A stretch of DNA of 64,000 nucleotides from contig CAWDXE010000001.1 in NCBI GenBank assembly GCA_963806185.1, forward strand, positions 608,001 through 672,000, written 5' to 3'. The DNA comes from an uncultured candidate division Zixibacteria bacterium. Its GTDB lineage: Bacteria > Zixibacteria > MSB-5A5 > GN15 > FEB-12. The notes beneath the pieces are model-generated. The model had not been told where the DNA came from. It searched no databases and saw only the letters and a list, made by a program, of their open reading frames with translations. The translations under genes and the position numbers were made by a program. Shown here in pieces: positions 23,774 to 64,000 of this stretch (position 1 is its first letter; every line of letters starts with the position of its first letter).

Positions 23774-23847
23774 GGGGTTGTAGTTCAGTTGGTTAGAACG
23801 CATGCCTGTCACGCATGAGGTCGCGAGTTCGAGTCTCGTCAACCCCG
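23774..23847 (+). tRNA. tRNA-Asp(GTC), putative integration target
   Basis: GGGGTTG/CAACCCC acceptor stem, CATGC-CTGTCAC-GCATG anticodon arm, GTTCGAGT T-loop. Confidence 0.95.
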
Positions 23848-23945
23848 CTTATAATTGGTCATAAATTCTTGGTTCGCGTCACCACAATCCTCGATTGATT
23901 TCCGCCTTTCGCAGCAGCGTTTCTGATCGGCTGGCAGCCCTGACA

Positions 23946-27674: not shown

Positions 27675-27684
27675 GGCAACGGCA

Positions 27685-29788: not shown

Positions 29789-29797
29789 GAGACAAAC

Positions 29798-30361: not shown

Positions 30362-30372
30362 TATGTTGCGGT

Positions 30373-33057: not shown

Positions 33058-33061
33058 TCAC

Positions 33062-33784: not shown

Positions 33785-33786
33785 GC

Positions 33787-33840
33787 TCAGGCTACGTTCC
33801 CCTCCATCCAGTTGCAGAACGCGTCTCGTAGACCCCGCCA
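33787..33840 (+). repeat. att-like repeat copy 1
   Basis: TCAGGC...CCAGTTGCAGAACGCGTCTCGTAGACCCCGCCA, starting 2 bp after the kdpE stop. Confidence 0.9.
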
Positions 33841-34103
33841 GTATCCTAATGCGTAGTTAGACATACGCTTCCACTTATCCGGACTGTTAAATACACGGAA
33901 CTCAATCCATCGAAATTGAGTCGCATATTGCATGCGCGCACAAGAAGCACAACGGCTATCAAGCGAAGCTCGCTAAAGCCATTATTATCTATTCCACGAC
34001 TCGTCTGACGACATACCGATAGCCGAAAATTGCTCTAGGGCTGGCTAATGTTCTAAATTAACCTGATTGAACCGTTGACCGATGACGTGGAAGGAATTTT
34101 CAG

Positions 34104-35117: not shown

Positions 35118-35347
35118 ACTTGTACACATAAGCTCATCGGTTTATTCGTGGTCCATTTCCCTCCAAGGGGACAACGGACGTGCTCCTATGCTGACATGTT
35201 TCTTCTACCGCTTGTTGGTCGTCGTGCTTGGCGAATGGTGCGAGACTTCCAACTTCGGTTGGACCTACCGATTGTGCGTATGGCAGAGTAGGAGGCTAAA
35301 CGGAGGGCCCGTGGCAGTCCAGGGAAAGTGCAATCGGGGCTGCTCAG

Positions 35348-35401
35348 TCACGCCGGATACTCGATGACCCAGTTGCGGAACGCGTCTCGTAGACCCCGCC
35401 A
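35348..35401 (+). repeat. att-like repeat copy 2
   Basis: TCACGCC...CCCAGTTGCGGAACGCGTCTCGTAGACCCCGCCA. Confidence 0.9.
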
Positions 35402-35723
35402 TTATCGTCGATCCATTTAAGCCATTGTAATCACCATTCATTCCTTACTATCGCCATCCATCTGTCTCTACTTTTGAGGCAACGCGAATCCCCAAGCAGT
35501 TCCTGCCATGCGACGGTTGTCAGCCGGCAAGGAACAATTACCAGCGGCGGTGAGAGACGAGATGTTCTGCTTTCTGGTTCTCGTTCAATTTTGATTGGAG
35601 ATTGTTGTGCATTACGGTCCCCTTCAACGTCCAGATATCCTGACAATACATTCCGGGCGCGCTCGTGGTGGGTGCCATGGCATCTCTTCACCGACGCGTC
35701 ATGTTTTCGTCACGGCTTCCGGC

Positions 35724-36977
35724 TTACGATTTGTCGAGGCTACGGATTTTCACATAGAGCGCAATCGCCAGTATGGTGATGAGAAGAGAAGAGATTCCGA
35801 GACCCCATCGGCGGAAATAGTATTCGCGGACAAGTGCTGCAGCGCCGGTTTGTACCGTTTTGGACTTTGCGAGGCCGTCAGTCGCATACGGAATCAAAGT
35901 GTCGAGGTTGAACGCATGGATAGACGACCGCATGTGAATCTCGACTTGGTCGGCATCCTTGAGGGCAAATTCGATATCGGTTACCATCATACCCCGCCTC
36001 GACGCTTCGTTGACCCTGGACCGCGATGAATCAATCGCGTTTGCCAGAGTCGCATAGAGTGTACTCATGCTGTCGATTTTTGCCGCCGCCGTTGTGCCAT
36101 CGCCGGCAGAGTGGCAGTTGCCGCAAAGTTGGCCGTCTCCCAGGCCTATGAGGGTCCTTGTCGGTGTGGTGATACCGTGATTGCTGTGGCACGTCTCGCA
36201 CATTGGCAAGCCCTGCGCCGCGAATGCCTCATAATGTGGTGATAACGCATACAGGTCGGCCTCGATCGCGTGACACATTCCACATACGGCCGATAAAGAA
36301 CTGGCCCCGGGTGGTGCTGCGCCGTGGTTCCCATGGCAATCGTTACAGACGGGCGCGCTCAGATCCATCTTCACGAATACTGCTTTGCCGTGAACTGATT
36401 TGCGGTAAAGCTCTTCCTGATCGGTAGGTATCCCGTATTCGGCCATGTAGTCGGCGTTGCTATGGCAGGCACCGCATGTAGAGGGAATGTTAGCCGGGTT
36501 CGTCGTCGAATAGGGCATGGCGGCGTCACCGATCTTGTGGGCCGTATGGCAGGAAACGCAGGTGGCCACCTTGGAATCGTTTTTCTGAAACAGCCGCTGG
36601 CCGTGAATCGAGGTCTTGTACTTGTCGAACTGATCAATCGGCAGTTTGGGGTTATGTTCGTGCATATAACGGGCGTCACCGTGGCAACGACTGCAAAACT
36701 CCGGTATTGCCGATCTTCCGGGCACACCCCGCCAGCCGGCGGAAGCTCGAACGGCGTCCATGTCATCCAGGGCGGGATTGCCGCCATGACAGTCGGAACA
36801 GTTCAGGCCTTTCTGGGCGTGGATATCGAGAGAGAAATCGTGCGCGGGTCCTTCGTCGCCTTCCAGCTCCAGGTGACAGATCACGCATTGACTCTGTCTG
36901 CTGCCCTGCGGCCAGACCGGTGCGGCCAGCGTGACGCAGAGAATTCCGCCCATGATGAAAAGCTTGCGGGACATCAT
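35724..36977 (-). CDS. Membrane-anchored multiheme cytochrome c (9 CxxCH)
   Basis: Signal peptide; CVICH, CSDCH, CSRCH, CVSCH, CGACH, CNDCH, CGMCH, CETCH, CGNCH; C-terminal TM. Start trimmed to overlap the cytochrome b stop. Confidence 0.9.
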   Translation of the reverse strand: MMSRKLFIMGGILCVTLAAPVWPQGSRQSQCVICHLELEGDEGPAHDFSLDIHAQKGLNCSDCHGGNPALDDMDAVRASAGWRGVPGRSAIPEFCSRCHGDARYMHEHNPKLPIDQFDKYKTSIHGQRLFQKNDSKVATCVSCHTAHKIGDAAMPYSTTNPANIPSTCGACHSNADYMAEYGIPTDQEELYRKSVHGKAVFVKMDLSAPVCNDCHGNHGAAPPGASSLSAVCGMCHAIEADLYALSPHYEAFAAQGLPMCETCHSNHGITTPTRTLIGLGDGQLCGNCHSAGDGTTAAAKIDSMSTLYATLANAIDSSRSRVNEASRRGMMVTDIEFALKDADQVEIHMRSSIHAFNLDTLIPYATDGLAKSKTVQTGAAALVREYYFRRWGLGISSLLITILAIALYVKIRSLDKS

Positions 36978-38098
36978 TTGATCCAATACCCCACCAAGGT
37001 CATGACTACTATGAACGCCACCACGAAAACTCCGAAACTCATCCACCGTCGTGACGGCTCGTTGCGACTGGACCGCTTGTCCAGGAAGGGGACAAGAAGC
37101 CAGAGCAAACCGCCGAGCGACATGAGCAACATGCCGAACTGTTCGCCTTCGAGAAACAGGACTTTGGCCGGTAACAGCTTCAATGCCTGAAAAGCAAACA
37201 TGAAGTACCACTCCGGACGAATCACATCCGGTGGAGGCGCGAAGGGATCGGCCTTGTTACCGAGCGGCCAGTGAAAGACGCCAACGCCATCCGGAAACAC
37301 GACCGCAAGCAGCGCGAGGACGTTCAGCGCAACTAACCAGAGCAGAAGGTCGCGGTACAGGAAATTCGGAAAGAACTTCATGTACTTCTTCTTATCAGTC
37401 GCTTTATTCTCCCAGCCGATCGGCTCGCTCATTCCCTGACGCTGGACAAACAGCAGATGGATCGCGAGAACGGCGGTGAAGAGTGCCGGAAGAATGGCCA
37501 CGTGCAGTCCGAAAAAGCGGCCAATGGTCGCCCCGGTTACTTCCTCTCCTCCCCGCAGGATTACGAGCAAGTACTGACCAACGAATGGAATGGCGTGCAT
37601 CATTCCCGTTCCGACCCGGGTTGCGAAATATGACAGTTCGTTCCACGGTAGCAGATACCCGGAGAATCCAAAAGTGAGAGCAAGGCCGAGCAGGGCGATG
37701 CCGCTAAACCAGGTCAATTCTCTGGGAGGGCGATACGCCCGAGTAAAGAACACTGTGAACATATGAAGGAACGCCACGAAGATCATCAGATTCGCCGACC
37801 ATGAATGCAGAGAGCGAATTAACCAGCCGAAGCTGACCTCACTGATGATAAACTTCACCGATTCGTATGCCGAGTCCGCCCCCGGGCGGTAATACATCAG
37901 CAGGAGAATGCCGGTGCCGACCTGAATCAAGAACAGGAATATCGTCAGGCCGCCCAGATAGTAGAAGATTGAATGCCCGTGTACGGGCACAGTCTTATGG
38001 TCCATGTATTGGACCAAATCCTGAATCTTCAGGCGCTCGTCAAGCCAGGAGAATAGTCGTTGACGGCGGCCCGACGGCGCACTGGCTGGCGCAGCCAT
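36974..38098 (-). CDS. Cytochrome b subunit of a Rieske/cytb complex (b6 and subunit IV fused)
   Basis: GWLIRSLHSWSAN, LHM, GYLLPW, RFFGLH...IH, PEWY. Confidence 0.93.
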   Translation of the reverse strand: MAAPASAPSGRRQRLFSWLDERLKIQDLVQYMDHKTVPVHGHSIFYYLGGLTIFLFLIQVGTGILLLMYYRPGADSAYESVKFIISEVSFGWLIRSLHSWSANLMIFVAFLHMFTVFFTRAYRPPRELTWFSGIALLGLALTFGFSGYLLPWNELSYFATRVGTGMMHAIPFVGQYLLVILRGGEEVTGATIGRFFGLHVAILPALFTAVLAIHLLFVQRQGMSEPIGWENKATDKKKYMKFFPNFLYRDLLLWLVALNVLALLAVVFPDGVGVFHWPLGNKADPFAPPPDVIRPEWYFMFAFQALKLLPAKVLFLEGEQFGMLLMSLGGLLWLLVPFLDKRSSRNEPSRRWMSFGVFVVAFIVVMTLVGYWIK

Positions 38099-38574
38099 CA
38101 GACAGGTTCCTTCGACACAAAGATTTCGGCACCTACTTCGTTCACCAGAAACACCTCCAAGGGCCGGGGTGGCGGCCCCGAGATATTTTTACCGTCAAGA
38201 CTATACCGACCATTGTGGCATGCACACCAGAGGACGCCTTCTTCGGGGCGATTCTGCACGGTGCAGTCGAGGTGGGTACACTGAGCCGAGAGTGCGCGAA
38301 GTTCGCCATTCGGCGTTAGAATGATGATGCCGAGCTTCTGTCCAAAGCGAAACGTTTTGGCACGTTTTGCCTCGGCCTCGATATCCTTTCGGCCAAACGG
38401 AAGTTTAACTTGATTGACTCTTGCTTCGCCCGAGGTAGGCGGGAGTAGGAAACGTATGGTCGGGTAAAGAATGGATGCTGATACGGCAATAGCGAAGAAG
38501 CCGATAAGACGATCAAGAAACCCGCGTCTCGTCAACCGTTCATTTGGGCTGTCGTTTGGCGCTGTCAAATGCAT
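38098..38574 (-). CDS. Rieske 2Fe-2S protein with Tat signal
   Basis: TRRGFL, CTHLDC, CACHNGRY, GPPPRPL. Confidence 0.93.
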   Translation of the reverse strand: MHLTAPNDSPNERLTRRGFLDRLIGFFAIAVSASILYPTIRFLLPPTSGEARVNQVKLPFGRKDIEAEAKRAKTFRFGQKLGIIILTPNGELRALSAQCTHLDCTVQNRPEEGVLWCACHNGRYSLDGKNISGPPPRPLEVFLVNEVGAEIFVSKEPV

Positions 38575-39455
38575 ACACAGATGGTGCGATCTCTTCCCGG
38601 TTGTCGAGCAATTCAGCGTGCTCAGTGTCAGATGTTGACGCGATCATCCTCCGGTCTATCTTTTGGAGGTTCCTGCTGATCGTCTCCCGGGTCCTTCCGG
38701 CCTGAGATCATTCGTACGATGACCCACATGACCACGAACCCGAACAGGGCGATCGCTATCGGAGTTATCAAAGTTGCCAACGAATCCATAAACGCCTCCG
38801 CCGCCAAACACATGAGCGCAGTCTGTGAGACGTGTGACTACTATCCAAAACAACCGCGCGTTATGATTCTGGCTCAGAAGCAATCGACATGATGCAAAAC
38901 CCTGCTGACCCGGGAGATCCTGTAAGATCGGCGTCACACCTGCATACTGGGCCGCAAAATCAAAGGTCAGGATTTGAGAATGAAACCCCACAAGTATCCC
39001 TTGGGTCTCTGACCATCATGTCTAAGTCGATTCTCCCTCGGGAGTTCGATATGCCATTAATGTCGACATACAGAACCAAGTTTGTCAAGTTTTTTTTTCC
39101 AGCGCCTCGTCCTATGTCATTGCCCGCCCACACACACGCGGGCTATACATTGAGATGGCGGGCACTATGAAGGGAATGTGACGGAACTGTTACACTTGCC
39201 GTATGCTCCTTTTAGCGATTGGATTGATACCGGAGACCACGAATCTGAAGGATGATCTGAATCCAGATTTTAGAGTCTTGAGATGCGCGGGGGGACCGAA
39301 AGAAGCGACATCAAATCACTGATCGGTCAGCATTAGCCCAGCAGGATACACTGTCGGGTCGACTTGTCTTCAACCAGTGGGGTAGCGAACCCATTGTTGT
39401 AAAGTGGCTTATTGGTACCTCGAAGGTTTGATACGTCCGCCCGGGGGAGCCAACA

Positions 39456-39509
39456 CTAGGCCGAACTTTCAATTTCCTGGTTGCAGAACGCGTCTCGTAG
39501 ATTCTGAGT
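39456..39509 (+). repeat. att-like repeat copy 3 (right arm diverged)
   Basis: CTAGGCC...CCTGGTTGCAGAACGCGTCTCGTAGA. Confidence 0.82.
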
Positions 39510-39619
39510 ATAAATCAGAATAATACATTTTTGATATGCGACAGTGCCACGCTGGCCAACAGCGCCTCCAAAATCACGAACGATTTCCGCCATGAAAGGC
39601 TAGCTATCGGAGCACAGAC

Positions 39620-41410
39620 CTATTTCTGAACAAGGTTCATGGTGCCTCCCGTGCCAACACTAACGAGTTCGGCCAGCGCTTCTTCCAGCTTCGAGAGTCG
39701 GGCCTTTAGTGCCGCATTCTCGGCTTTCATCTGCTCTTTCTCCCTCTCCAACGTTTGGATGGCAATCATCATGACTCCGGCCATATCGCCGGAGTTAATG
39801 CTGACTGAGTCTCCTGACAGACCTACACAGTCGTGTCCGAAAGCGGCATAGAACTCCTGCGCGACAGGACCATAATGGCGGAACCGGGTTGGATCGTTCC
39901 CCTTGTAGTTCCAACTCGTCAGGCTCAGTCCGCGAATCTTTCGAAGGACTTCTCCACCGTCCACGGGCTGGAAGTTCTCCTTTTGATTTTTGTCCGAAGT
40001 GAAAGTGTAAGCCACTTGCCCCTCAATAACAGTGACAGACGAGTTCCCCAGCCGGATCTTGTTACTGGCGTTCACGTTGGCGTTGTAGCCGATCGCCGTG
40101 GCGTTAAACAAGGCGTCGCTCGCAACATCCGCTGAATAACCTACCGCAGTGTTTTGGCGGCCAGTAGCATTGGTCAGAAGCGCGTTACTGCCGCAGGCGG
40201 CGTTGGAATAGCCGGTTGTGTTGTTTTCAAGTGCGCTGCCCCCGTAGGCCGTGTTGCTGTTGCCGGTGCTGTTTCGATAGAGCGCAGATTGGCCGCTGGC
40301 AGTGTTGCCTCCGCCAACAGTGTTGAAATAGAGTGCCCGGTATCCACTGGCGGTATTTGCAGAGCCGCTGGTATTGGAATAAAGCACTTTAGTTCCGCTG
40401 GCAGAATTGTAGCTGCCGCTCGTGTCAGAGTAGAGCGCCCCCAGACCACTGGCTGTGTTGGAGCGGCCGGTCGTGTTGCTATTGAGCGCAAGTTCCCCGA
40501 TCGCGGTATTGCTATCGCCAGAAATGTTGTTCTCCATTGCGCCTAGCCCGGTCGCGGTATTGTAAGTGCCGGAGACATTGCTTCTGAGCGCGTATTCCCC
40601 GGTGGCTGTATTGCCGTCGCCGGTAGTGTTGTTCTGCAATGCACCGAGACCAGTAGCGGAGTTGTAGTTGCCACTGGTATTTTGGGCGAGCGCACTTGTA
40701 CCAATGGCAACATTGTTGTTTCCAATCGTATTGCTACGGAGCGCAAACTCCCCGCTGGCGGTGTTACCGTGGCCAGTGGTGTTGAGGTTGAGCGCATTGC
40801 TTCCGTTGGCAGTGTTGAAGTAGCCGGTAGTGTTGCTAGACAGCGCATTCGGCCCAGTACCAACGTTGTCAGTGCCGGTCATCGTCAGGTTCCCCGTGTT
40901 TAGACCTACGAAGACGTTGTTGGTGCCGAAATTGTGGAGGAACAGTGTACCTCCTTTAACAATATTGCCGGTTGTTGCCGCTGAAGAGTCGAGATTGATA
41001 TTCCCGCTGATGCTCCCACCGGACGATCCATCAATCGTACTGACTCGATACGCGAACGGCACCGTGACAAGGCTCGTGCGGGGACTTAGCTCCGGATCGG
41101 CTCCGACTCTGACACCCAGGTAGCGTTTCGTGCTGCTGAAGACGGTGTCGGTGACGGGCGTCACCGTTCCGAGCAGGACGGCAAAAAGTCCACCCGAAGT
41201 GGTAACAGACTGCGTTTCGGTCCACTTGCTTGTGCCGCCGATAGCAGCATTGTAGATCGTAAACACGACCGAGTAGCTTCCGTCCGGCACTGTCATGCCG
41301 CCGGCTGTGGTCAGGCGACCCTGATAGTTTAAGGAAGTCGGTGTGACGGAGTAGGCACTCGATATTGTCAACACCAGGAAGGCGCACAAAGAATTGATTG
41401 AATGTTTCAT
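39620..41410 (-). CDS. Secreted fibre-like protein with 14-aa repeats and C-terminal peptidase S74 chaperone domain
   Basis: Signal peptide; LNYQGRL; more than 15 NTxGxxNTAxGxxAL repeats; SDKNQKEN...HYGPVAQ; terminal coiled coil. Confidence 0.8.
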   Translation of the reverse strand: MKHSINSLCAFLVLTISSAYSVTPTSLNYQGRLTTAGGMTVPDGSYSVVFTIYNAAIGGTSKWTETQSVTTSGGLFAVLLGTVTPVTDTVFSSTKRYLGVRVGADPELSPRTSLVTVPFAYRVSTIDGSSGGSISGNINLDSSAATTGNIVKGGTLFLHNFGTNNVFVGLNTGNLTMTGTDNVGTGPNALSSNTTGYFNTANGSNALNLNTTGHGNTASGEFALRSNTIGNNNVAIGTSALAQNTSGNYNSATGLGALQNNTTGDGNTATGEYALRSNVSGTYNTATGLGAMENNISGDSNTAIGELALNSNTTGRSNTASGLGALYSDTSGSYNSASGTKVLYSNTSGSANTASGYRALYFNTVGGGNTASGQSALYRNSTGNSNTAYGGSALENNTTGYSNAACGSNALLTNATGRQNTAVGYSADVASDALFNATAIGYNANVNASNKIRLGNSSVTVIEGQVAYTFTSDKNQKENFQPVDGGEVLRKIRGLSLTSWNYKGNDPTRFRHYGPVAQEFYAAFGHDCVGLSGDSVSINSGDMAGVMMIAIQTLEREKEQMKAENAALKARLSKLEEALAELVSVGTGGTMNLVQK

Positions 41411-41694
41411 ACACTTAGGCCTTTATGAAAGTGAGCGGACTGAATTCAGCGTTGCGCGGACAAGTACTGCCCATATTATCCTCAATATAGTCGGATGCAC
41501 GAGCTTTCCTATGGAAATGAATTTGTGTCACCGGAAGAGCGGGTTAGCGTTGGCTCTGTGCATTGTAGCTTATCACGACCATGATTTTCGGCCGATTGGT
41601 AGGGCAACAATCCCGCTAAACGGCAATGTGCCTCGTGAAACGTATCGAACTCTCGAAGTTGAGACCAAACTGGCCGAGTCATAACGGCATCGCA

Positions 41695-41800
41695 AGAAAC
41701 GGTACTGCATTCGATGGTGAATCTGTCTCGGCAGGAGTCTACTTGTATCGCCTCACAGCTGGCAATGTTGCTGAGACAAAAAGAGGCTGTTGCTCAAGTA
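41695..41800 (+). pseudogene. Remnant of a FlgD-Ig/T9SS-type C-terminal domain
   Basis: DGESVSAGVYLYRLTAGNVAETK with no recognisable upstream gene body. Confidence 0.5.
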
Positions 41801-42028
41801 TGGGCTGGGCGACTGTGATACCAGAGGCAAGTTTGTCGCTCTGCCCTTCTCCATTCTGTGAAATGCCAACAATTCCGCATCTAATCCCACTGTTATCCAT
41901 CGTGGCCCACCAATTCGAGCACATTGTGAACGGATGGGAAACCGAAAAGTCATGGGTTCTGGACGATCAGAGAAGCCAGACTGGGTGCGGTCGTGCCAGG
42001 TCGCGCCAGACCGCACAACGTGACTTAG

Positions 42029-42081
42029 TCAGGCCGCATTTCGATAACCCAGTTTCGGAACGCGTCTCGTAGAGCCTGTTT
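42029..42081 (+). repeat. att-like repeat copy 4
   Basis: TCAGGCCGCATTTCGATAACCCAGTTTCGGAACGCGTCTCGTAGAGCC. Confidence 0.88.
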
Positions 42082-42208
42082 ATATCGCCACAGTTGATCC
42101 ATGGTGATACTTACGGCAAGACTTCAAGGTCTTCCCCCAATCATTCGATTTGGCTGACTTCATCCGACACGAATGTTCCCAGTCGGACAAATTGTGTTCC
42201 CGCAGGAT

Positions 42209-42751
42209 TCAATAAAGCGCCAGATTCACCGTAGCGTGGAGGGCTGTGAAGGAGTCACCTGTGGTGCCTCCATCTGTCAGATTTGCGCCGACCTCCATTT
42301 GGAAATGTCGGCCAAATTGATAGCCTCCGCCAACCGAGACTCCCACCCCTTCGAAGCCTACTCCTCCATATTCGCCGGTCAGTACTGCAAGGATTTCAAC
42401 GGTTGGTCCGCCAAAGACATAAAACGACCGACTGGTAGGGTTGGCATAATATCGAACGATCACTGAAGGTGCATTCCACATGAGAATGAGGTCGTTTGTT
42501 GGATGAATCGTAGAGTGACCGGAGTAAAGAACAAGCAGTTGATCCGAGATTCCCACGCCAATATCAAGTGTCGTCTCGATTCCATTCAGGTTTTGTTGGT
42601 CTGCTCCTATGTCGTGCGGAGACGTAATTGCTCCCCATCCGGCTCCGAATCCGAGATAAAAGCCCGTCCGTTTACCGTCAAACGCGGTCGCTGAGGAAAC
42701 GATCGTCAACAGAAATAGCATTCCGAGCGCGAATCGACCCTTTGGTATCAT
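42209..42751 (-). CDS. Small outer-membrane beta-barrel protein
   Basis: Signal peptide, GFYLGFGAG, GGGYQF, terminal aromatic residue (LALY). Confidence 0.65.
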   Translation of the reverse strand: MIPKGRFALGMLFLLTIVSSATAFDGKRTGFYLGFGAGWGAITSPHDIGADQQNLNGIETTLDIGVGISDQLLVLYSGHSTIHPTNDLILMWNAPSVIVRYYANPTSRSFYVFGGPTVEILAVLTGEYGGVGFEGVGVSVGGGYQFGRHFQMEVGANLTDGGTTGDSFTALHATVNLALY

Positions 42752-42839
42752 GATAAAATCCTTTCTTCACGCCAGTTCTTCCGTGGCGTCGGACACAGAT
42801 AACTCCAAGTCACATCTTCGCGCTCCGGCGGTTTATCAT

Positions 42840-45200
42840 TCATTGACACGCCGCCAGTGGAGTGAAATTAATAAACAGGTTGTGAATTAGCGCGGTCAGG
42901 TCGCCGACGTCCACTCCTCCGATTCCGTCGCAGTTGGCCTCAGCATCACAACAGAGCGGAGTGAAATTGATGAAGAGATTGTCTACGAGAGTGGTCAGGT
43001 CGCCGACGTCGACTTGACCCATCGCGTCACAATCGACATTGCCGGTGGCCCCGATACAGCAAGGATAAGCGTTCAGCTTTGTAACAAATACATCGTTGAA
43101 ACCACTCATGGAGGCCTGGAGTGGATTTTGAAGCGGGAAATTGGCGGAGTAAGTACGACCCATCACATAGGCGCTTCCCCCAGCGTCAATTGCGATTCCA
43201 GTGCCAAATTCATCGTCACTTCCGCCAAGAAACGTGCTGTAGACCAGCCCCGTACCCGCACTGTTCAATTTGGTGACAAAGGCATCGTCGTAGCCGCCAT
43301 GGAACATTTGGTAAGGGTCTTGGACGGGAAAATCTTCGGAATTAACACGCCCCGTTATATAGGCGTTGCCGGCAGCGTCAACCGCGATGTCGTTGGCGTA
43401 ATCATAGTCTCCGCTACTCCCCCCGAGATAGGTGCTGTAGACCAACCCACTGCCGACACTGTTGAGTTTGGTTACGAAGGCATCGGAGTAACCATCTTCA
43501 ACGGGCTGAAATGCATTTTCGATAGGGAAGTCAGTTGAATTGGTTCGACCGGTCATGTAGGCGTTCCCACTGGAATCGACTGCAACCCCGTAGCAGTAGT
43601 CTTCATCGTTCCCTCCGAGGTACGTACTATAAACCAGTCCGTTGCCCGTGGTGTTGAACTTGGTTACAAAGGCATCGACGTAAAAAACAAATGAGGCCTG
43701 GAATGGATTCTGGGTTGGGAAATCCGTCGAATAGGTGTATCCAGTTACATATGCATTCCCGTGAACATCCAGTGCGATTCCAGTACCTTGATCGTAGTCA
43801 GCTCCACCAAGAAAGGTGCTGTAGATCAGTCCACTGCCAGTGCTGTTGAATTTGGAGACGAAGGCATCGTAGTTGCCATCAAGGGAGCCGATGGACGCTT
43901 GGAAGGGATTCTGGGTAGGGAAATTCGCGGATTGGGTATTGCCCATGACAAAGGCATTGCCTTCAGCATCCGCCGCTATGTCGACGCTCCAATCAGCGCC
44001 GTTGGCTCCAAGGTACGTACTGTAAATCAGCCCAGTGCCAACACTGTTGAATTTGGTGACAAAGGCATCGGCGGTATCAATGCTTCCAAGAGCCGACTGG
44101 AAGGGATTCAGGGTCGGGAAGTTCGCGGAAGCGGTAACGCCAGTTACATAGGCATTCCCACCAGAGTCGACCACGATACCAAGGCCTCTGTCATAGCCAC
44201 TTCCCCCGAGATAAGTACTGTAGATCAATCCAACGCCGCTGCTGCCGATCTTAGTTATGAAAGCGTCGGTATAACCAATACCACCGTTGGATGCCTGGAA
44301 AGGACTTTGGGTAGGAAAGTTCGCAGAATAGGTTCCACCCGTTACATAGGCATTCCCTGCGACGTCGGTTGCAATGCCACCCTCCTCATTTTCGGAATTT
44401 CCTCCGCCAAGATAGGTGCTGTAGACTAAACTCACTGCATCTGCGCTTGAGGGAGCCGGCGAACACTGTGTCCGTGAATCAGATTCTGGCTGGTCCGCCA
44501 ACAGAACACCATTAAAGCGATGCTCACCCAGGGACGTCTGGACCCTCGCGAAGTTATCCCTCTGCACCACGGCGCTAATCGTTCCGCGATACTCGACTTT
44601 GACCTGTGCCAATTCGTCGGCGGAGAATGCTGCCATTTCCAAATTCAATCGACCATCAATGGCCGAACACGTCACGTCAACCCCCGGATACAGCCCATGC
44701 ATCGTAAGAGCGCTGTAGTTGGGGACCTCCGTTCGCCATTTCGAGTGATCATTGCCAATGAAATAGTTACACGTGTATTGCTGTTCCTCAAGGCCCATGA
44801 CCTCCACCGTTTCACTGGCACCAACAAACTCCGCCTTGATCATGGCCGTTTCGATGCTGTCGTGATCGTGATTGAACTTGCCGGGTAAGGCCTGGATGAT
44901 GTCAGCGGCAGGATCAGTGGCTGCGGCGGCCGCCGAAGATCTCTCCACTGTCCGGAAGAACTGATACCAGATACCATTCTTCGTGAACCACATCGTCGCC
45001 CCACTGGCATTGGCTCGGTACAGAATGCTATCGGGCCACTGGCCAAGATTCTTGGTAAATGCCAACGGTGAATCACCGAGGCTGCTAAGAACAGTGGACT
45101 TTTCTGGGACCGGCCGTGGATTGTCAGCCCACGCCGTCGCCACCAATACGAACGCCAGGATGCCCAGGAGGGGAATCGGAGTCAGTGCTCGATCGAACAT
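42840..45200 (-). CDS. SBBP beta-propeller repeat protein with dockerin-like tail
   Basis: FTKNLGQW; repeated LIYSTYLGG...IAVD..GNAYVTG.T.S.NFP; tail CCIGATGNVDC..VDVGDLT. Confidence 0.85.
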   Translation of the reverse strand: MFDRALTPIPLLGILAFVLVATAWADNPRPVPEKSTVLSSLGDSPLAFTKNLGQWPDSILYRANASGATMWFTKNGIWYQFFRTVERSSAAAAATDPAADIIQALPGKFNHDHDSIETAMIKAEFVGASETVEVMGLEEQQYTCNYFIGNDHSKWRTEVPNYSALTMHGLYPGVDVTCSAIDGRLNLEMAAFSADELAQVKVEYRGTISAVVQRDNFARVQTSLGEHRFNGVLLADQPESDSRTQCSPAPSSADAVSLVYSTYLGGGNSENEEGGIATDVAGNAYVTGGTYSANFPTQSPFQASNGGIGYTDAFITKIGSSGVGLIYSTYLGGSGYDRGLGIVVDSGGNAYVTGVTASANFPTLNPFQSALGSIDTADAFVTKFNSVGTGLIYSTYLGANGADWSVDIAADAEGNAFVMGNTQSANFPTQNPFQASIGSLDGNYDAFVSKFNSTGSGLIYSTFLGGADYDQGTGIALDVHGNAYVTGYTYSTDFPTQNPFQASFVFYVDAFVTKFNTTGNGLVYSTYLGGNDEDYCYGVAVDSSGNAYMTGRTNSTDFPIENAFQPVEDGYSDAFVTKLNSVGSGLVYSTYLGGSSGDYDYANDIAVDAAGNAYITGRVNSEDFPVQDPYQMFHGGYDDAFVTKLNSAGTGLVYSTFLGGSDDEFGTGIAIDAGGSAYVMGRTYSANFPLQNPLQASMSGFNDVFVTKLNAYPCCIGATGNVDCDAMGQVDVGDLTTLVDNLFINFTPLCCDAEANCDGIGGVDVGDLTALIHNLFINFTPLAACQ

Positions 45201-45262
45201 CGGATGCTCTCTTTCTGTTTTCCTCCACAATGACGCGATGCATCTTTATCGTATATTCATCC

Positions 45263-47617
45263 TCACTGACACCCCGCCAGTGGTGTAAAATTGATAAACA
45301 GATTGTCAATAAGCCTGGTTAGGTCGCCAACGTCCACGCCTCCGCTGCCGTCGCAGTTGGCCTCGTCATCACAGCAGAGCGGAGTGAAATTGATGAATAG
45401 ATTATCAATGAGCGTGGTCAGGTCGCCGACGTCGACTTGATCCATCGCGTCGCAATCGACATTTCCCGAGGGGCCTGAGCAACAAGAATACGATCCAAAC
45501 TTTACTACAAAGGCATCGTAAGGCCGGTTTGTACTACCACCTCCAAATAAAGCCTGGAATGGATCCCGGGTTGGAAAATCCGAGGAGTAGGTTTCTCCCG
45601 ATAAAAAGGCATTCCCACCTGTGTCCACCGCGATGCCAAAGCCATAATCATAGCCATACGTACCTAGATATGTGCTGTAGACTAGTCCATTTCCGGCCTT
45701 GTTGAGTTTGGTGACAAATGCATCGGCAGTGCCGCCGTTGGACGCCTGAAATGGGCTCAAGATGGGATAGTTCTCAGACCCGGTACCGCCAGTTACATAG
45801 GCATGACCAGCGACATCGACCGCGATACCACTTCCCTGATCCCCGAGATTTCCTCCGAGGTAGGTGCTGTAAATCAGTCCACCGCCGGCACTGCTGAGCT
45901 TAGTCACAAAGGCATCGGATGTCCCACTAAGCGAGGCCTGAAGCGGATTCTGAGTAGGAAAGTTCGCCGATAGTGTGTAGCCCGTTACATATGCATTTCC
46001 CACCACGTCTACAGCAATTCCAAAGCCATACTCAGCCCCACTTCCTCCGAGATACGTGCCGTAAACAAGACCGTTACCGGAGCTATTTAGCCTGGCGACA
46101 AATACGTCCCTGTATCCGCCTCCCAGGGAGTCCTGAAAGGAATTCTGGGTGGGAAAGTTCGTGGATTCAGTCAAACCCATGACACAGACTTTCCCTGCGG
46201 AATCGACACCAATTCCATTGGCCCAATCATCGCCATCTCCCCCGAGATAGGTGCTGTAGATCAGTCCACTGCCAGCATTGTTTAGTTTGGTGACAAAAGC
46301 ATCGAAGGTACTGCCGAGAGAATCCTGGAAAGGATTCTTGGTGGGGAAGTTTTCGGACGTTACAACGCCCGTTACATAGGCATTTCCTTCGGCGTCAATC
46401 GCGATACCGCCTCCACCATCGTCGCGAATCCCTCCAAGAAACGTACTGTAAATCAGTGCACTGCCGTCATTGGTGATTTTGAGAACAAAAGCGTCGTTGT
46501 CGCCTCCTTTGAGCGCTTGGAATGGAGCCTGAGTCGGGAAATTTGCGGAATTGGTGCTGCCCGCCACACAGGCATTACCCTCGGCGTCGACCGCGATGCC
46601 TCGGCCGTAATCACTGTTACTTCCCCCAAAGTAAGAGCTGTAAACGAGTCCACTTCCGACAGTATTTAATTTGGCGACAAATGCATCGGACGAGCCACTA
46701 TCGATGTAAGCCTGATACGGATTCTGAGTCGGGAAATTCACGGAATAGGTCGAACCCGTTACATATGCATTTCCCTCGGTGTTGACAGCAACACTATACC
46801 CATAATCTCCGTCTTTCCCCCCAAGAAACGTACTGTATACCAGAGTCACTCCGCTGGCGGCCGACGTTGCGGATGAAATTTTGCTTGCCGATCTTGATTC
46901 AAACGCATCGGCCAACAAGGCACTTTTAAAGTGATGTTCGCCGAGCGACGTCTGAATGGTCGTGACATTGTCCCTCTGAAATGTTGAATCAACAGCCCCT
47001 TGGTAGTCGACTTTGACCCGAGCGAGAGCACCATTGGATGAGGCTTTCACCTCCTCTTGCAAATTACCGTTCCTGACCACGAATGTGATGTCCACCCCCG
47101 GGTAGAGCCCGCGCATCGTAAGAGCACTGTAATTGGGGACGTTCGTGCGCCACTTAGAGTGATCATTACCCATGAAGTAATTGCATTTGTAATCTTGTTC
47201 ATTGAGGCCAACAACTTCGACCGCCTCACTGGCGCCGACAAACTCCGCCTTAATCATGGTCGTTTCGATGCTGTCGCGAATGAGTCTGCCGGATGAAGCG
47301 TGAATTGCGTCAGCGGCAGGTTCAGTGGCTGCGGTGGCCGCCGAAGATCTCTCCACTGTCCGGGAAAACTGGTACCAGATACCGTTCTTGGTGAACCACA
47401 TCGTCGCACCATTGGCATTGGCCCGGAACAGAATGCTGTCTGGCCACTGGCCAAGATTCTTGGTGAACGCCATCGGCTTGAATGTGAGATCTTGCGAGCT
47501 TTGACTCGATTCTTTGTGTTGGATTGAGTCGATCGTCGAATTGGCCACGGCAACACTTGACACCAGGCCGAAAGTGGCTGCGACCAGGACCAACCGATTC
47601 ACGGTGGCAATAACCAT
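45263..47617 (-). CDS. SBBP beta-propeller repeat protein with dockerin-like tail (tandem paralog)
   Basis: Same architecture as 42840-45200, with long near-identical stretches. Confidence 0.85.
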   Translation of the reverse strand: MVIATVNRLVLVAATFGLVSSVAVANSTIDSIQHKESSQSSQDLTFKPMAFTKNLGQWPDSILFRANANGATMWFTKNGIWYQFSRTVERSSAATAATEPAADAIHASSGRLIRDSIETTMIKAEFVGASEAVEVVGLNEQDYKCNYFMGNDHSKWRTNVPNYSALTMRGLYPGVDITFVVRNGNLQEEVKASSNGALARVKVDYQGAVDSTFQRDNVTTIQTSLGEHHFKSALLADAFESRSASKISSATSAASGVTLVYSTFLGGKDGDYGYSVAVNTEGNAYVTGSTYSVNFPTQNPYQAYIDSGSSDAFVAKLNTVGSGLVYSSYFGGSNSDYGRGIAVDAEGNACVAGSTNSANFPTQAPFQALKGGDNDAFVLKITNDGSALIYSTFLGGIRDDGGGGIAIDAEGNAYVTGVVTSENFPTKNPFQDSLGSTFDAFVTKLNNAGSGLIYSTYLGGDGDDWANGIGVDSAGKVCVMGLTESTNFPTQNSFQDSLGGGYRDVFVARLNSSGNGLVYGTYLGGSGAEYGFGIAVDVVGNAYVTGYTLSANFPTQNPLQASLSGTSDAFVTKLSSAGGGLIYSTYLGGNLGDQGSGIAVDVAGHAYVTGGTGSENYPILSPFQASNGGTADAFVTKLNKAGNGLVYSTYLGTYGYDYGFGIAVDTGGNAFLSGETYSSDFPTRDPFQALFGGGSTNRPYDAFVVKFGSYSCCSGPSGNVDCDAMDQVDVGDLTTLIDNLFINFTPLCCDDEANCDGSGGVDVGDLTRLIDNLFINFTPLAGCQ

Positions 47618-48009
47618 GATAGATTACTTTCTCCCAGAGGTTCTATGTGTGCGATGGAATCTTTGGGTCGAACGTGATTGAGAACGTACCAGCTTCAGTA
47701 AGGGTACTGATTCAGTATAGATTGAAACGGTCAGGTTACAAGACTTATTTTATCGAATTAGTGGTAATCGGAGGGAAGAGGCGCGAAGAAAGGTAATTTC
47801 TCAAGTGATTGGGGCTAGGAACCACGATAGCCCAAGGATGTAACCTGAAGATTACGAAAGAGATAGCGGTGTATACGGGTACGCCAGCCAGGGAAGGTGA
47901 AATGTCAGTGGTGGTCCCGCTCAGATTCCGAATTAGCGCTCAACAGGTAACTGTTAAAATCGACCGTCAAGTTCTTGGTCAACGACACCCGAGCGCTTGA
48001 CGGGATTTG

Positions 48010-48061
48010 TCAGGCCGCGTTTTCGATCACCCAGTTGCAGAACGCGTCTCGTCAACCCCGC
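48010..48061 (+). repeat. att-like repeat copy 5, with the exact tRNA-Asp 3' end
   Basis: 48046-48061 GTCTCGTCAACCCCGC is identical to 23833-23848. Confidence 0.92.
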
Positions 48062-48079
48062 ATTGATTGAAATGCAGTC

Positions 48080-48543: not shown

Positions 48544-49548
48544 GCTCTCCTCTCTATACCGTCAGGGCCTAACGGGAAGTAGATTCATTACTATCTGCCT
48601 TAGAATATGGATTATATCCACATTATCCACGATAGATCACAATATACCCGGCACCGGGGGACGTCGCAAGCGTATATACGGCAGCGGTCAATTGGTCGGC
48701 GGAATGGGCGGTCCTGATGGAGGACACGCCCAGGAGAAAAGTGAAAGCCCCGGTGTTTGGAGTGTTGAAATCCCTTAGTCGAATTGGATTCGAATGTCAT
48801 CCAACAACTGCCGTCATATCTGGCGCATTACGGTCGGACCGGGAATCTTAAGGCGAAAAAAGTCTGGACAGAGTGAGGTTGGGCCCGCCATTATCATTTA
48901 AATAGCCCCATGCTATCTATACGACCATGCGTAATTGTGCATCCCGCCCCCCGTCCGCACTTGAAATCCATTTGGGTTAACAGAGATTTCCGGCGCCACG
49001 ATCGGCTCACCATCTGATTCTATAGACATTTAGCGCGCGGGGCGACCGACGCCCCCACGTTTCAAGACTCCCTCACTCACTGAACTTGCCGGGTAGCGTT
49101 CCTGGATTCGCATAGAACCTCGCTGCATCTGAAGTGTCCGTAGAGATCCGCGCGGCCACTTGCGCATCAGGTCCTCGCTGATTCGTAGAAGAAGGATTTC
49201 AGTGTACTCATAAAGTGTGGTCGCCAGACACTTACCGCATTGGGTCACACCGACAGTATGTCACTTGTTTTCCGCGCCGGTGTTGTGACAACCGTGACTC
49301 TTTCGGACAACACACCCTCTCCAGTCTACAGCTCACAACCGCTTTGGACAGTGTCCTTGGGGCTTTGAGTACCATCACTGCCTCCGGCGGCTCCTGGGAT
49401 TTGCCTACTCTGCGAATCCAACTGCTGACGGATCAGGGCATCAGTGTCTGGGTTCGGCTTCCGGGCCGGGGTACTTGGTTAGAATTCGTCGTCGTACGGG
49501 GCTAAGATAGAGGACACGTTTAATCCTTCTTGTCCCTTATCTTTGTCG

Positions 49549-61300: not shown

Positions 61301-61456
61301 TAATAGAAGATCAGGCAAACTCGCCAATTGTCAAGTTAAGAAACCACCGTAACGTTATCCCCTTTAAGCAATTGGCCACGACCTCTTCCTCCGATTGAGC
61401 AGCTGTCATAACATTATAATGAGGAGGGAGCTTATCACTTTGTCGGCCTGATGGTC

Positions 61457-61507
61457 TCAGGCAGTCCCTATCACCCGGTTGCGGAACGCGTCTCGTAGAC
61501 TCCGCCA
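61457..61507 (+). repeat. att-like repeat copy 6
   Basis: TCAGGC...CCCGGTTGCGGAACGCGTCTCGTAGACTCCGCCA. Confidence 0.88.
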
Positions 61508-61597
61508 CTATCTTATCTCTATAATCACCAACGAGTTGCCGTGATATCAAAAATCCGACCTCAGTCTCTGAAGACTCTGCGAAATCCTGGATAGGCC

Positions 61598-61647
61598 TTG
61601 ACCAAAAATGGGAATTCGCCGATATTGTTCGATATATGTCGAACAAT
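61598..61647 (+). promoter_or_regulatory. Promoter and palindromic operator overlapping the arsR start
   Basis: TTGACC-N17-GATATT; ATTGTTCGA-tatatg-TCGAACAAT (61624-61647). Confidence 0.7.
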
Positions 61648-61992
61648 CGAAATAAGAAGATCGGCGACTATACCCGGATGTTCGCCGCTCTATCAAACCC
61701 ACACCGGGCAGCGATTCTCCTGCGCCTGGCCAATTGTTGCTGTGGTGATGCCATTAGTTGCAGCCACGATGAGATGCGAACCTGCGTCGGCGACGTCGCC
61801 AAACATCTCAAGATCGCGGCGTCCACGGTTTCACACCACATCAAAGAACTGCACCAAGCCGGATTGATCAAGATGGAGCGTTGTGGGAGAACCGTCAAAT
61901 GTTGCGTTGATGCTGAAGCCGTGCGAGAATTGGCCAATTTTCTCGATCGAGCGGTGAAGCAAGCACCGAAACCTGAACGAAAGAAAGCCTGA
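61636..61992 (+). CDS. ArsR/SmtB-family regulator, Cys-rich
   Basis: FAALSNPHRAAIL, NCCCG..SC, STVSHHIKELHQAGLI. Confidence 0.9.
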   Translation: MSNNRNKKIGDYTRMFAALSNPHRAAILLRLANCCCGDAISCSHDEMRTCVGDVAKHLKIAASTVSHHIKELHQAGLIKMERCGRTVKCCVDAEAVRELANFLDRAVKQAPKPERKKA

Positions 61993-62008
61993 GAGACGGA
62001 GGATCGAC

Positions 62009-62605
62009 GTGGACGATAACGGTAATTTCAATCAACCCGGTTGCTGTGAAGATGGCCAATGCTGCCCGCCAACACCAAGCGGCGAAAGTCGTAGGCCTGG
62101 CCTATGGAAAATCTGGATTTTCTCGGGGGTAATTCTGCTGGCGTGTACCGTGGCGGCGTATTCTTTGTTTTGGCGAAGCGACAAGACAGCGGCTTCGGCC
62201 TGTTGCCCGCCTGGTTCAGCAGCGGCTGCCGCGTGCGGCCAGGCCGCGACCAATCCCGGTTTCGACCACACGGCTGCCCCGATTGGTCTGTCACTTGTTG
62301 TTCTAACTAAAACAGGTGAGGCACTCTCCGGTGAAAAGCTGGCCATGATCGGCGAAGTGCGGACGTCCCTTGAGTCACATGACGCACGACTGCAATTCGA
62401 AACGCTTGAGTCAGGAGACACCGCCTTCCTGAAGCTCGTGAATCAGTATGGAATTACCGCACTTCCCGCGGTGATCGTGACGGGGCAAGACAAAGTCCTC
62501 GTGCTCAGTGAAAGACAGGTAAACGCCAATACGATCCTGAGCGTCTTCAATCCAGTCCCGGCGTCAGCCGCAACTGATTCAACGTCAAAGAGCGGATCAC
62601 TGTAG
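62009..62605 (+). CDS. Cys-pair-rich membrane-anchored protein, possibly thioredoxin-like fold
   Basis: GCC..QCC, one TM, ACC..AC, LVNQYGITALPAVIV; RBS GGAGG. Confidence 0.55.
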   Translation: MDDNGNFNQPGCCEDGQCCPPTPSGESRRPGLWKIWIFSGVILLACTVAAYSLFWRSDKTAASACCPPGSAAAAACGQAATNPGFDHTAAPIGLSLVVLTKTGEALSGEKLAMIGEVRTSLESHDARLQFETLESGDTAFLKLVNQYGITALPAVIVTGQDKVLVLSERQVNANTILSVFNPVPASAATDSTSKSGSL

Positions 62606-62610
62606 GAAGG

Positions 62611-63312
62611 ATGTCGATGGACTGGGTTGAACAGGTGCTGAAATCCTCGAGTTTCACCTTCGCCGCACTTCCCGCAGCCTTGGTACTCGGTCTTTTCACT
62701 GCGGTAACGTCCTGCTGCAATTTTGGAGTAATCGCTGCCGTCGTTGGCTTCGCAGGTAGTCGCGACGAAAGTCATAGTCGGCAAGATGCTCTATTCACGA
62801 CTATTGCCTTCACGCTTGGTACCATCGTTTCACTTTCCCTCATGGGGCTGGCGATCGGGCACATCACTGGGTTGGCAGGAACGAGTCTCCAACGGTACGG
62901 TACCGGTTTCATGGGCTTTGCCCTGATTTTCGCGGGGCTGGCGGCACTGAGGGTTCTGCCATTTCGTCTCCCATCCGTGGACTTGTCGAAGGTAAAGCGG
63001 CCAAGCGATCGCGCTGGCTCTACTGCATTTGGATTGGTGATAGGTACGGCGAGCATAGCTTGCACGATGGCCTGTTGCGGACCTCTTCTGCCGCTGGTGT
63101 TTGGTATGAGTGCCGCGCACGGGGGAGCACTTTGGGGTGCTGCCATCCTCGGCTTGTTCGCGATAGGATACAGTTTCCCCTTGGCTGCCCTGATGCTTGG
63201 CGTGGGTCTGGGAAGAACGATGGCAATCGCTCAGAAGGCAATCAAACCCATTCGCATGATAGCCGGAATAGGACTTGTCGCCGTCGGCTTCTGGCTGCTG
63301 GCGACTATGTAG
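62611..63312 (+). CDS. CcdA/DsbD-like transmembrane thiol-redox protein
   Basis: About six TMs; LGLFTAVTSCC, ACCGPLL, FAIGYSFPL. Confidence 0.72.
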   Translation: MSMDWVEQVLKSSSFTFAALPAALVLGLFTAVTSCCNFGVIAAVVGFAGSRDESHSRQDALFTTIAFTLGTIVSLSLMGLAIGHITGLAGTSLQRYGTGFMGFALIFAGLAALRVLPFRLPSVDLSKVKRPSDRAGSTAFGLVIGTASIACTMACCGPLLPLVFGMSAAHGGALWGAAILGLFAIGYSFPLAALMLGVGLGRTMAIAQKAIKPIRMIAGIGLVAVGFWLLATM

Positions 63313-63324
63313 GCACGTATAAGC

Positions 63325-64000
63325 ATGACCGATTCAAAAAGGTGCGACAAAGAAATTCGTATTGCAGGATGCTGCAACCCTCAGGTGGAAATCGTGAAGC
63401 TCGTTGATCGCCAGCCCGTGCCCATCTCAGAGCCGATTCCAAGGCTACCTTGGATAATCGGGGCGATGGAAACTCCAGCTGGTAAGGTCCCGGTTGTCCG
63501 ATCGAAATTGCAGCCAGCCGATATATTTGGCTCGTGGAAAGCGCGCTGGGGTATTCGACGCATGAGCTATCGTATTCGACCGCGTCTCTATGCAGTCGGC
63601 AATCCTACGGACGTTTCTCCAGTATTCGTGACCGCCAACTACAAGATGAGCTTTGACCGCCTGCGATCGCAGCTCGATGGAATCGACGGGTGGATTTTGG
63701 TACTCGACACCAAGGGAATCAACGTCTGGTGCGCTGCCGGTAAAGGCACGTTCGGGACGGCCGAGCTCATGAACCGACTCGAAGCCGTAGGCCTCAAGAA
63801 GATAGTCTCTCATCGTAGATTGATTGTCCCTCAACTCGGCGCCACCGGCGTCAGCGCACACATAGTTCGCGAGGGGAGTGGTTTTCATGTCTTTTACGGT
63901 CCCGTGCGTGCCAGGGACATTCGCGTTTTCATGCAAGCGGGAATGAAAGCGACTCCCGACATGCGACGCATCACCTTTACTTTCACGGAGCGCATCGTCC
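63325..64000 (+). CDS. hgcA: Mercury methylation corrinoid protein HgcA, 3' end outside the window
   Basis: Manual translation: LYAVGNP..SPVFVTANYKMSFD..WILVLDTKGINVWCAAGKGTFGT..LIVPQLGATGV..YGPVRA. Cap-helix motif NVWCAAGK at 63721-63744. Confidence 0.92.
   Translation, partial: MTDSKRCDKEIRIAGCCNPQVEIVKLVDRQPVPISEPIPRLPWIIGAMETPAGKVPVVRSKLQPADIFGSWKARWGIRRMSYRIRPRLYAVGNPTDVSPVFVTANYKMSFDRLRSQLDGIDGWILVLDTKGINVWCAAGKGTFGTAELMNRLEAVGLKKIVSHRRLIVPQLGATGVSAHIVREGSGFHVFYGPVRARDIRVFMQAGMKATPDMRRITFTFTERIV

Follow-up and report, generated by a model that had tools for sequence, protein, structure and literature searches.

An hgcAB operon in a likely inserted, recombination-site-bounded unit behind tRNA-Asp in a Zixibacteria genome

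The DNA analyzed in this study was a window of 64,000 nucleotides from an uncultured Zixibacteria bacterium (GenBank assembly GCA_963806185.1, contig CAWDXE010000001.1, positions 608,001 to 672,000), designated G000:C1:608001-672000, where G000 is the genome analyzed here; other G numbers denote related genomes and L numbers denote loci. At its right edge, the window enters a five-gene operon containing hgcA and hgcB. This operon filled a 3.4-kb block between matching recombination-site ends, and it was therefore likely inserted as one unit. We consider, with a probability of about 0.7, that the unit was placed behind tRNA-Asp by a large serine recombinase (LSR) that targets tRNA genes. The predicted affiliation of the host with Zixibacteria was supported by the best matches of release factor 1 (RF1), which were 65-74% identical and included many Zixiibacteriota records mixed with records labelled "uncultured Ignavibacteriales", and by the best HgcA match, which also fell with Zixiibacteriota. 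The G000 assembly was 82% complete.

The operon had the gene order arsR, a gene for a 198-amino-acid (aa) protein (X), a dsbD-like gene, hgcA, and hgcB, with nothing else in a unit of 3,436 bp, which fitted the operon to within approximately 130 bp on the left and 170 bp on the right. From the letters of the window, the original prediction had assigned the HgcA cap helix (NVWCAAGK) to the open reading frame from 63325 and had made this frame the fourth gene of an operon starting about 130 bp after scar 6, the last of six repeats behind tRNA-Asp. Both assignments were correct: GINVWCAAGKG was found at residues 131-141, the frame was the fourth of the co-oriented genes, and scar 6 ended at 61505-61507 with the arsR ATG at 61636. 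The C-terminal membrane domain of HgcA is expected to have 4-5 helices. Past the window edge, where the prediction had proposed to look for this domain and for hgcB, the hgcA frame remained open throughout 385 aa without a frameshift and gave four hydrophobic segments above 1.6 on a hydropathy scan, and it was followed by hgcB with CxxCxxCxxxC motifs at residues 19 and 49, Cys72, and a terminal Cys97-98. HgcA passed the curated cut-off of its hidden Markov model (HMM) (Table 1), whereas the fused HgcAB-like and CdhE models stayed under their cut-offs; the cap helix agreed with the motif N(V/I)WCA(A/G) given for HgcA in PMC12484752. Protein X had no Pfam or NCBIfam match; thioredoxin-like leads were weak, with all Atlas matches below 0.9. 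The DsbD-like protein scored 34 on the ArsG model, for which 200 is needed. An Rfam scan of the unit gave 0 matches, and promoter and terminator scans were uninformative (4 and 5 sites, where shuffled sequences averaged 2.2 and 3.7).

A perfect 8-6-8 palindrome lay over the arsR start codon. Its core was present at the same offset, with at most one mismatch, in each of the other 11 arsR-hgcAB loci but in only 0.36% of random 120-mers, and the palindrome is likely an ArsR operator. Judged by sequence, HgcA and HgcB likely methylate mercury under the control of ArsR acting through this palindrome.

The boundaries of the unit involved two families of scars. The original prediction had taken scar 6 as the boundary of an hgcA module, and it did mark the left junction of the hgcAB unit, but the scar itself was the right end of the preceding unit and belonged to a first family, type A; the unit's own ends were of a second family, type B. 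On the left, an inverted type-B half-site with a score of 18 was found 49 bp right of the junction, and a score above 12 was reached by only 0.17% of 3600 random array 95-mers. On the right, type-B scar 7 was located 100-170 bp past the hgcB stop; it was the top G000 match of an HMM built from 17 type-B scars of other genomes, and its matrix score was 44, with 0 in the reversed-genome control. These ends indicated that hgcA lies inside a module bounded by attachment (att) sites, as had been proposed. The further scar expected downstream was found in a different form, since the type-A family was absent there and type B closed the unit after hgcB. A further type-A scar closing the module was sought on C1 right of hgcB by mismatch search, HMM, and matrix, and none was found; an interim reading in which the unit had no right end was dropped after the type-B scars emerged.

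The two ends also belonged together in other genomes. Left ends with an inverted half-site at +42 to +49 were closed by a type-B scar in all 9 units whose right end could be seen (in all 7 when G000 was excluded), compared with 15 of 43 other units longer than 300 bp. The Fisher p values were 0.0004 and 0.002, respectively, although the genomes are related, so that the significance is overstated. The nine complete marked units included L359 and those of G011 and G196, and one further marked unit (G156) ran off its contig. Five marked left ends (L356-L360) were situated directly at tRNA-Asp in other records, L359 being a 1.4-kb unit with one gene, and units longer than 300 bp spanned 0.7-33 kb overall. 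The type-B family came to light through a repeat beside an LSR remnant at C1:676224-676367. We rejected a transposon with terminal inverted repeats around hgcAB-araC-adh-akr, because the repeat consisted of four copies of the att half-site family.

The array into which the unit is set is anchored by tRNA-Asp(GTC), whose 3' end is the likely integration target; intact LSR genes of relatives end inside the antisense of this tRNA. In the window, tRNA-Asp was followed by six type-A scars, all on the same strand and each with an arm of approximately 40 bp and a tRNA-Asp-like 3' end; G000 had one more copy, behind tRNA-Asn. With nhmmer, using a model built from those same seven scars, the six scars scored 50-60 bits, and everything else beyond the seven scored at most 13.5. 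An independent matrix from 43 scars of other genomes recovered exactly the same seven sites in G000 and 0 in the reversed genome. The type-A pattern was present in 37 of 201 genomes of the class, often as same-strand series kilobases apart, whereas the reversed control gave single hits in five. Read antisense in the LSR frame, type-A scars encoded the conserved tail RGLRDxFRNWVIENAA-stop. The stop was at codon 10-13 past the core in 47 of 50 scars; among the control frames, one likewise shared a stop, at codon 6 in 26 scars. By a rough estimate, the ratio of amino-acid-changing to silent variants was 0.58 in the LSR frame and 1.37 and 1.19 in the other frames. We infer that each scar comprises the P half of an LSR attachment site plus the displaced tail of an LSR reading frame. 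No IntI-type integrase, as expected of an integron, was detected in G000, and the scars of the array carry a tRNA-like 3' end and the LSR-frame tail. Nine scar junctions were counted from tRNA-Asp to C1:676234. Locating the far end of the array by synteny was tried and rejected; the end could not be fixed because the gene after the tRNA pair varied and genes as far as C1:722 kb were scar-bounded cargo in G022.

In five relatives, an LSR gene was antisense to a tRNA with its frame ending inside that tRNA, and the two LSRs scanned had Resolvase, Recombinase, and zinc-ribbon domains. Thirty LSR loci were retrieved from 151 genomes of the order; in 23, a tRNA lay at the 3' end of the gene, and in 13 of these it was tRNA-Asp. 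A second LSR family, of 517 aa and 25-29% identical to the first, ended at tRNA-Asp in six genomes, and five of these six loci scored an inverted type-B half-site directly at the junction. The attP sites of LSRs are symmetric. We infer that the 517-aa family is the best candidate for the type-B enzyme, because its own tRNA-side end is an inverted type-B half-site. In G000, a decayed C-terminal LSR remnant (46.7 bits, next best 7.7) was located ahead of a clade II nosZ cluster, and a decayed LSR 3' end came after scar 5; LSR remnants were thus present at two other array junctions and at none of the hgcAB unit. A comparison of relatives L307-L318 showed that in tRNA-Asp alleles like that of G000 the integrated LSR frame met TGA right after Arg-Gly, and in other alleles it continued into a tail derived from the tRNA. 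After excision the frame would bear the scar tail instead, a possible activity switch. First-family LSR elements (L077, L111-L114, L345, and L347) carried a co-oriented distant tyrosine recombinase of approximately 367 aa and genes for MerR-like, QueC-like, and 255-aa proteins. One G039 element encoded a coupling-protein-like gene (PF10412), which gives a hint, and nothing firmer, of conjugative mobilization.

A recombinase had been looked for near hgcAB, and this expectation failed: neither a recombinase nor a transfer gene was found within the unit, and no recombinase stood beside it. The only two PF00589 genes in G000 were XerC/XerD-sized, putatively named Xer, and located on other contigs. 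In the absence of a helper recombinase in G000, the hgcAB unit could move only with a visiting element.

The HgcA tree conflicted with the species tree, as the original prediction had suggested examining. In the RpoB tree, G000 was placed inside family f1 (Shimodaira-Hasegawa-like approximate likelihood ratio test [SH-aLRT] 100), nearest to G022 and G091; its RpoB row covered 863 of 1282 positions and was assembled from pieces selected for their similarity to a relative. The HgcA tree had 53 rows, comprising 43 from the phylum (42 of the 49 carriers) and 10 outgroup rows. Both HgcA copies of G000 (the second is described below) nested with those of G136 and G160 (f7, another order) and of G042 and G235 (f4), with support of 100/98. 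The approximately unbiased (AU) test rejected a single clade for the 10 f1 HgcA rows (p-AU 5e-6) and a grouping of G000 with G013 and G202 (4e-7); it used 21 rows and LG+G4, with groups named only after the first trees were seen. The conflict supports a transfer of hgcAB between Zixibacteria lineages, in either direction. Of the 285 genomes of the phylum, 49 carried hgcA; within f1 it was present in 10 of the 107 genomes other than G000 and was not found in G022 or G091. Searches of 72,556 plasmid records and 50,697 phage records gave no HgcA match. G217, the only other genome among the 285 with multiple hgcA matches, had three, each at a contig start, and 8% contamination.

A second arsR-X-dsbD-hgcA-hgcB operon was present in G000 at C7:92.2-95.4 kb, at the end of a 16.3-kb arsenic-resistance island. 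It stood behind arsD, arsA, acr3, arsR, and arsE/F/G-like genes, and no recombinase was found in the island. The two operons were 68% identical in DNA and their HgcA proteins 71% identical, with no similarity outside the operon; the two HgcA copies were sisters in the tree (98/73; SH-aLRT 98). The dsbD-like gene of the second copy contained a frameshift that may stem from an error of assembly, because rpoB (G000:C4:315388-319144) was split into 11 frameshifted pieces in the same assembly. The alaS- and kdpB-like genes of the window also seemed split, and together with rpoB these splits point to local indel errors. Short matches only, mostly tRNA ends, were obtained when the right arm of the tRNA-Ser island was searched for in the 285 genomes.

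The events that would account for these observations are as follows. A circle bearing the operon would have integrated at tRNA-Asp by means of a tRNA-targeting LSR supplied by a helper element, the type-B enzyme perhaps belonging to the 517-aa family, and each newcomer would have integrated at the tRNA end and pushed older units outward. The operon would have arrived long ago from another Zixibacteria lineage, and movement today would take place only if a helper element arrived, by excision in trans or by carriage along with a neighbor. The original prediction of a mobile mercury-methylation locus, with the tRNA-targeted array as its transfer route, was thus upheld with regard to the intact operon, the att ends, and the tree conflict, and not with regard to present-day mobility or a cell-to-cell vehicle.

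Several observations weigh against this reading. The matrix used to choose the first type-B seeds was made from the four sites of G000 itself, and the family was therefore not found blind. In units lacking a recombinase, the half-site was located approximately 47 bp from the junction and not at it, for which simple decay gives no explanation. For all six 517-aa LSR elements, the 4-40 kb of retrieved sequence contained no right end belonging to the element, and the assignment of enzyme to scar therefore rests on half-site symmetry. In G011, a first-family LSR was fused in frame to a type-B tail, which counts in favor of the main reading and against the 517-aa assignment. The 82%-complete G000 assembly contained only remnants and no intact LSR of either family, nor a match to PF00239 or PF07508. 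The closest HgcA proteins were only 71-73% identical to that of the unit, and the guanine-plus-cytosine (GC) content of the unit was 54.6%, near the 56.3% of the contig; there was no sign of recent transfer, and the acquisition appears old. In f3, hgcA kept a common upstream context in five genomes, as under vertical descent there. Neither type-A nor type-B scars were found at any of the 34 other hgcA neighborhoods inspected (of 48 carriers; up to 10 kb on each side, several shorter), nor in the wider flanks of hgcA in G136, G160, and G235.

Other explanations were weighed against insertion as one unit. The att ends may be older than their cargo, with hgcAB entering a type-B unit that already stood in the array, empty or with other cargo, either through duplication of the tRNA-Ser copy or through illegitimate recombination; in that case hgcAB never travelled as this cassette. 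We regard this as unlikely: the sister relationship and identical gene order of the two G000 copies speak for it, as do the 13 of 34 other hgcA loci that retain the five-gene operon in full or in part, in varied contexts and without scars, but the copies share only 68% of their DNA and no likeness beyond the operon, the unit fits the operon closely on both sides, and the second copy is itself in a repeat-bounded island. Somewhat less doubtful, while still not favored, is that units with the +47 half-site form a distinct class of non-autonomous cassettes that capture whole operons and are moved by helper LSRs in trans, integron-like without a resident integrase. The offset of +42 to +49 was constant in the nine complete units, the one cut unit, and four further tRNA-adjacent left ends, the one-gene unit stood directly at tRNA-Asp, and the wide range of unit sizes is in line with it; this explanation is also compatible with the insertion step itself. 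No capture intermediate or circle was seen, however, tandem integrase-less islands have already been described as decayed elements (PMC3146451, PMC7563491), and a hypothetical third LSR family with a longer 3' end could yield the same offset.

Vertical inheritance, with hgcAB ancestral in the phylum, heavy loss, old paralogy, and an incidental position between scars, appears improbable. The occurrence of hgcA in 49 of the 285 phylum genomes, the clustering of HgcA by family beyond shuffled expectation (19 changes against a mean of 27.5), and the case made in PMC10083202 for mainly vertical descent with loss are in its favor, but paralogues would have to be kept on the G000 branch and yet lost in most of f1, including G022 and G091. 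It also leaves two copies in repeat-bounded units behind tRNAs unexplained, and the AU tests weaken it further. Very improbable indeed is a joining of foreign DNA to the contig by assembly or binning. The rpoB pieces do reveal local assembly errors, but the unit was located mid-way in the 1.1-Mb contig C1, flanked on either side by scars typical of the lineage, its nearest HgcA relatives were of the same phylum, and among 35 conserved genes tested for splitting in G000 none was split.

The rest of the array carried diverse cargo. To the right of scar 7, the next unit, with an inverted half-site at +46, contained genes for AraC, a Zn-dependent dehydrogenase, and an aldo-keto reductase and was closed by a weaker type-B scar. 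Beyond it, a clade II (Sec-dependent) nosZ cluster at L001:8481-17740 included rrf2, cytochrome c, nosD/F/Y, CoxA-like, and hemerythrin-like genes; the same nos cluster was found beside or between scars in G020, G022, and G091, with reversed orientation. A 19-kb type-B unit of G011 contained a cluster named as ars-like by visual inspection of its sequence. In the window, a methyltransferase gene stood alone between scars 1 and 2 (34104-35117), with an 84%-identical copy after a scar in G053, a member of another family. Other cargo, also named by eye, included a kdp-like potassium pump operon, a Rieske/cytochrome b pair, and two paralogous repeat proteins (192-201-bp repeats). A type-B scar approximately 2 kb behind the transfer-messenger RNA (tmRNA) gene, the third-ranked match of the type-B HMM, suggests that this family may also use ssrA. 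A small array behind tRNA-Asn (G000:C1:488600-492809, minus strand) had its own scar type and one type-A scar; more than 100 bp of post-tRNA sequence was repeated after its first unit, and an Asn-type end was also present before window scar 3 (~39440). Behind tRNA-Ser(TGA) (G000:C7:121911-160300), two scars with a shared arm were located at +19.9 and +38.3 kb, and behind tRNA-Leu(CAG) (G000:C7:4568-37420) a 3'-end repeat was located at +32.8 kb; no recombinase was found at either locus.

Table 1. Features of the tRNA-Asp array, the hgcAB unit, and related loci of G000. Plain numbers are window positions; C and L001 positions are those of contigs and of the locus that continues past the window edge.
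Feature	Position	Strand	Evidence or remark
tRNA-Asp(GTC), array anchor	23774..23848	+	ARAGORN
Other array cargo	25983-33784, 36974-38574, 42840-47617		sequence by eye
Type-A scars 1-5, starting at 33783, 35344, 39454, 42025, 48006	33783..48062	+	~40-bp arm plus tRNA-Asp-like 3' end
Extra type-B scar, missed by the original prediction	48832..48891	+	HMM 32 bits; matrix score 36
Scar 6, type A	61453..61507	+	right end of preceding unit, left junction of hgcAB unit
Inverted type-B half-site, left-end mark of hgcAB unit	61555..61578	+	score 18
Palindrome, predicted ArsR operator (likely)	61625..61646	strandless	sequence
arsR (ArsR/SmtB repressor, 118 aa, Cys-rich)	61636..61992	+	NF033788 60.8 bits, cut-off 55; PF01022
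198-aa protein X, one membrane segment, 8 Cys	62009..62605	+	hydropathy
DsbD/CcdA-like membrane protein, 6 segments	62611..63312	+	PF02683 44.3 bits
hgcA, 385 aa	63325..64000 (first 225 codons), on to G000:C1:672482 (L001:3325-4482)	+	NF040863 445.2 bits, cut-off 275
hgcB, 98 aa, start overlaps hgcA stop	L001:4479-4775 (G000:C1:672479-672775), past window edge	+	NF040864 127.1 bits, cut-off 99
Scar 7, type B, right end of hgcAB unit	L001:4876-4944 (G000:C1:672876-672944), past window edge	+	HMM 52.9 bits, E 8e-14
araC, Zn-dependent dehydrogenase, aldo-keto reductase unit	L001:4988-8234	+	inverted half-site at +46
Weaker type-B scar closing araC unit	L001:8201-8234 (C1:676201)	+	matrix only
Decayed LSR C-terminal remnant, 48 codons	L001:8224-8367 (G000:C1:676224-676367)	-	tblastn E 5e-9, 63% over 43 aa
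Type-B scar behind tmRNA	L418 (G000:C1:972554-972616)	-	type-B HMM, third-ranked match
Arsenic-resistance island, 16.3 kb, second hgcAB at its end	L020 (G000:C7:79329-95718)		between tRNA-Ser(CGA) and 21-bp direct repeat

The hgcAB unit was compared with known systems. The ssrA-specific islands of Dehalococcoides (LSR DsiB, vcrABC cargo) described in PMC3146451 are likewise arranged in tandem behind a tRNA gene (tDNA). According to the same source, DsiB is encoded on the reverse strand with its 3' end overlapping attL and is maybe complete only on the circle, 15 islands have no integration module, and an environmentally important enzyme is carried as cargo; the LSR-att overlap in the Zixibacteria relatives and the cargo here are alike in these respects. 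In contrast to Dehalococcoides, the target here is mainly tRNA-Asp and not ssrA, the dsiA/parB/mom module is absent and other genes neighbor the scanned LSRs, scars of two families alternate and each family has a conserved tail, and helper elements pair an LSR with a distant tyrosine recombinase or a coupling-protein-like gene; the cargo is hgcAB, found as such a unit in one genome only. Streptococcal cis-mobilizable elements (CIMEs), described in PMC7563491 as tandem cargo units of 1.2-13 kb with attL/attR and no recombination or transfer genes, share these traits with the hgcAB unit, which has cognate att ends, lacks such genes, and stands in tandem at one target gene. CIMEs are defined there as decayed derivatives of integrative and conjugative or integrative and mobilizable elements, whereas the unit here has LSR-type sites and a fixed, unexplained 47-bp left offset. 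Prochlorococcus tycheposons (bioRxiv 10.1101/2020.12.28.424599) are also tRNA-anchored, with successive integrations, leftover partial tRNAs and integrase fragments, and metabolic cargo, but 910 of 937 are reported to use tyrosine recombinases and many to carry replication genes, and the hgcAB unit has neither. With regard to the operon itself, an ArsR-like regulator is co-transcribed with hgcAB in Pseudodesulfovibrio mercurii ND132 (bioRxiv 10.1101/2022.10.17.512643), and arsR is upstream here too; the link to arsenic resistance reported for ars-linked hgcAB (PMC7438021) is shared with the second copy of G000. Both differ from the present operon, which has two extra genes between arsR and hgcA, plus att ends.

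The presence of hgcA in Zixibacteria (PMC12484752) and the ArsR control of hgcAB with its arsenic link (bioRxiv 10.1101/2022.10.17.512643) have already been reported. Section 8 of PMC7438021 states that hgcA was found neither on viral contigs nor close to insertion sequences or transposases, and asks for mechanisms. A literature search that covered few subscription papers yielded no description of hgcAB as part of an att-bounded element; the class of mechanism is known, and hgcAB as bounded cargo appears to be new. The finding concerns one genome among 35 examined. Horizontal transfer of hgcAB has been widely inferred from trees, with the vehicle left open, and a bounded unit would give a concrete route. 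G000 holds two copies of the operon, each within a repeat-bounded unit behind a tRNA; for one of them the ends are resolved to the base and there is a candidate recombinase family. This ties the mobility of hgcAB to ArsR control and to arsenic islands. As a tentative extension, Zixibacteria might exchange tRNA-anchored cassettes, whole operons (nos, ars, and hgcAB) being carried by mini-elements that lack a recombinase, have a dedicated left end, and are excised and re-inserted by visiting LSR elements, the hgcAB unit still being excisable and arsenic selecting its spread. If this were true, the hgcAB unit would be a defined vehicle for mercury-methylation genes.

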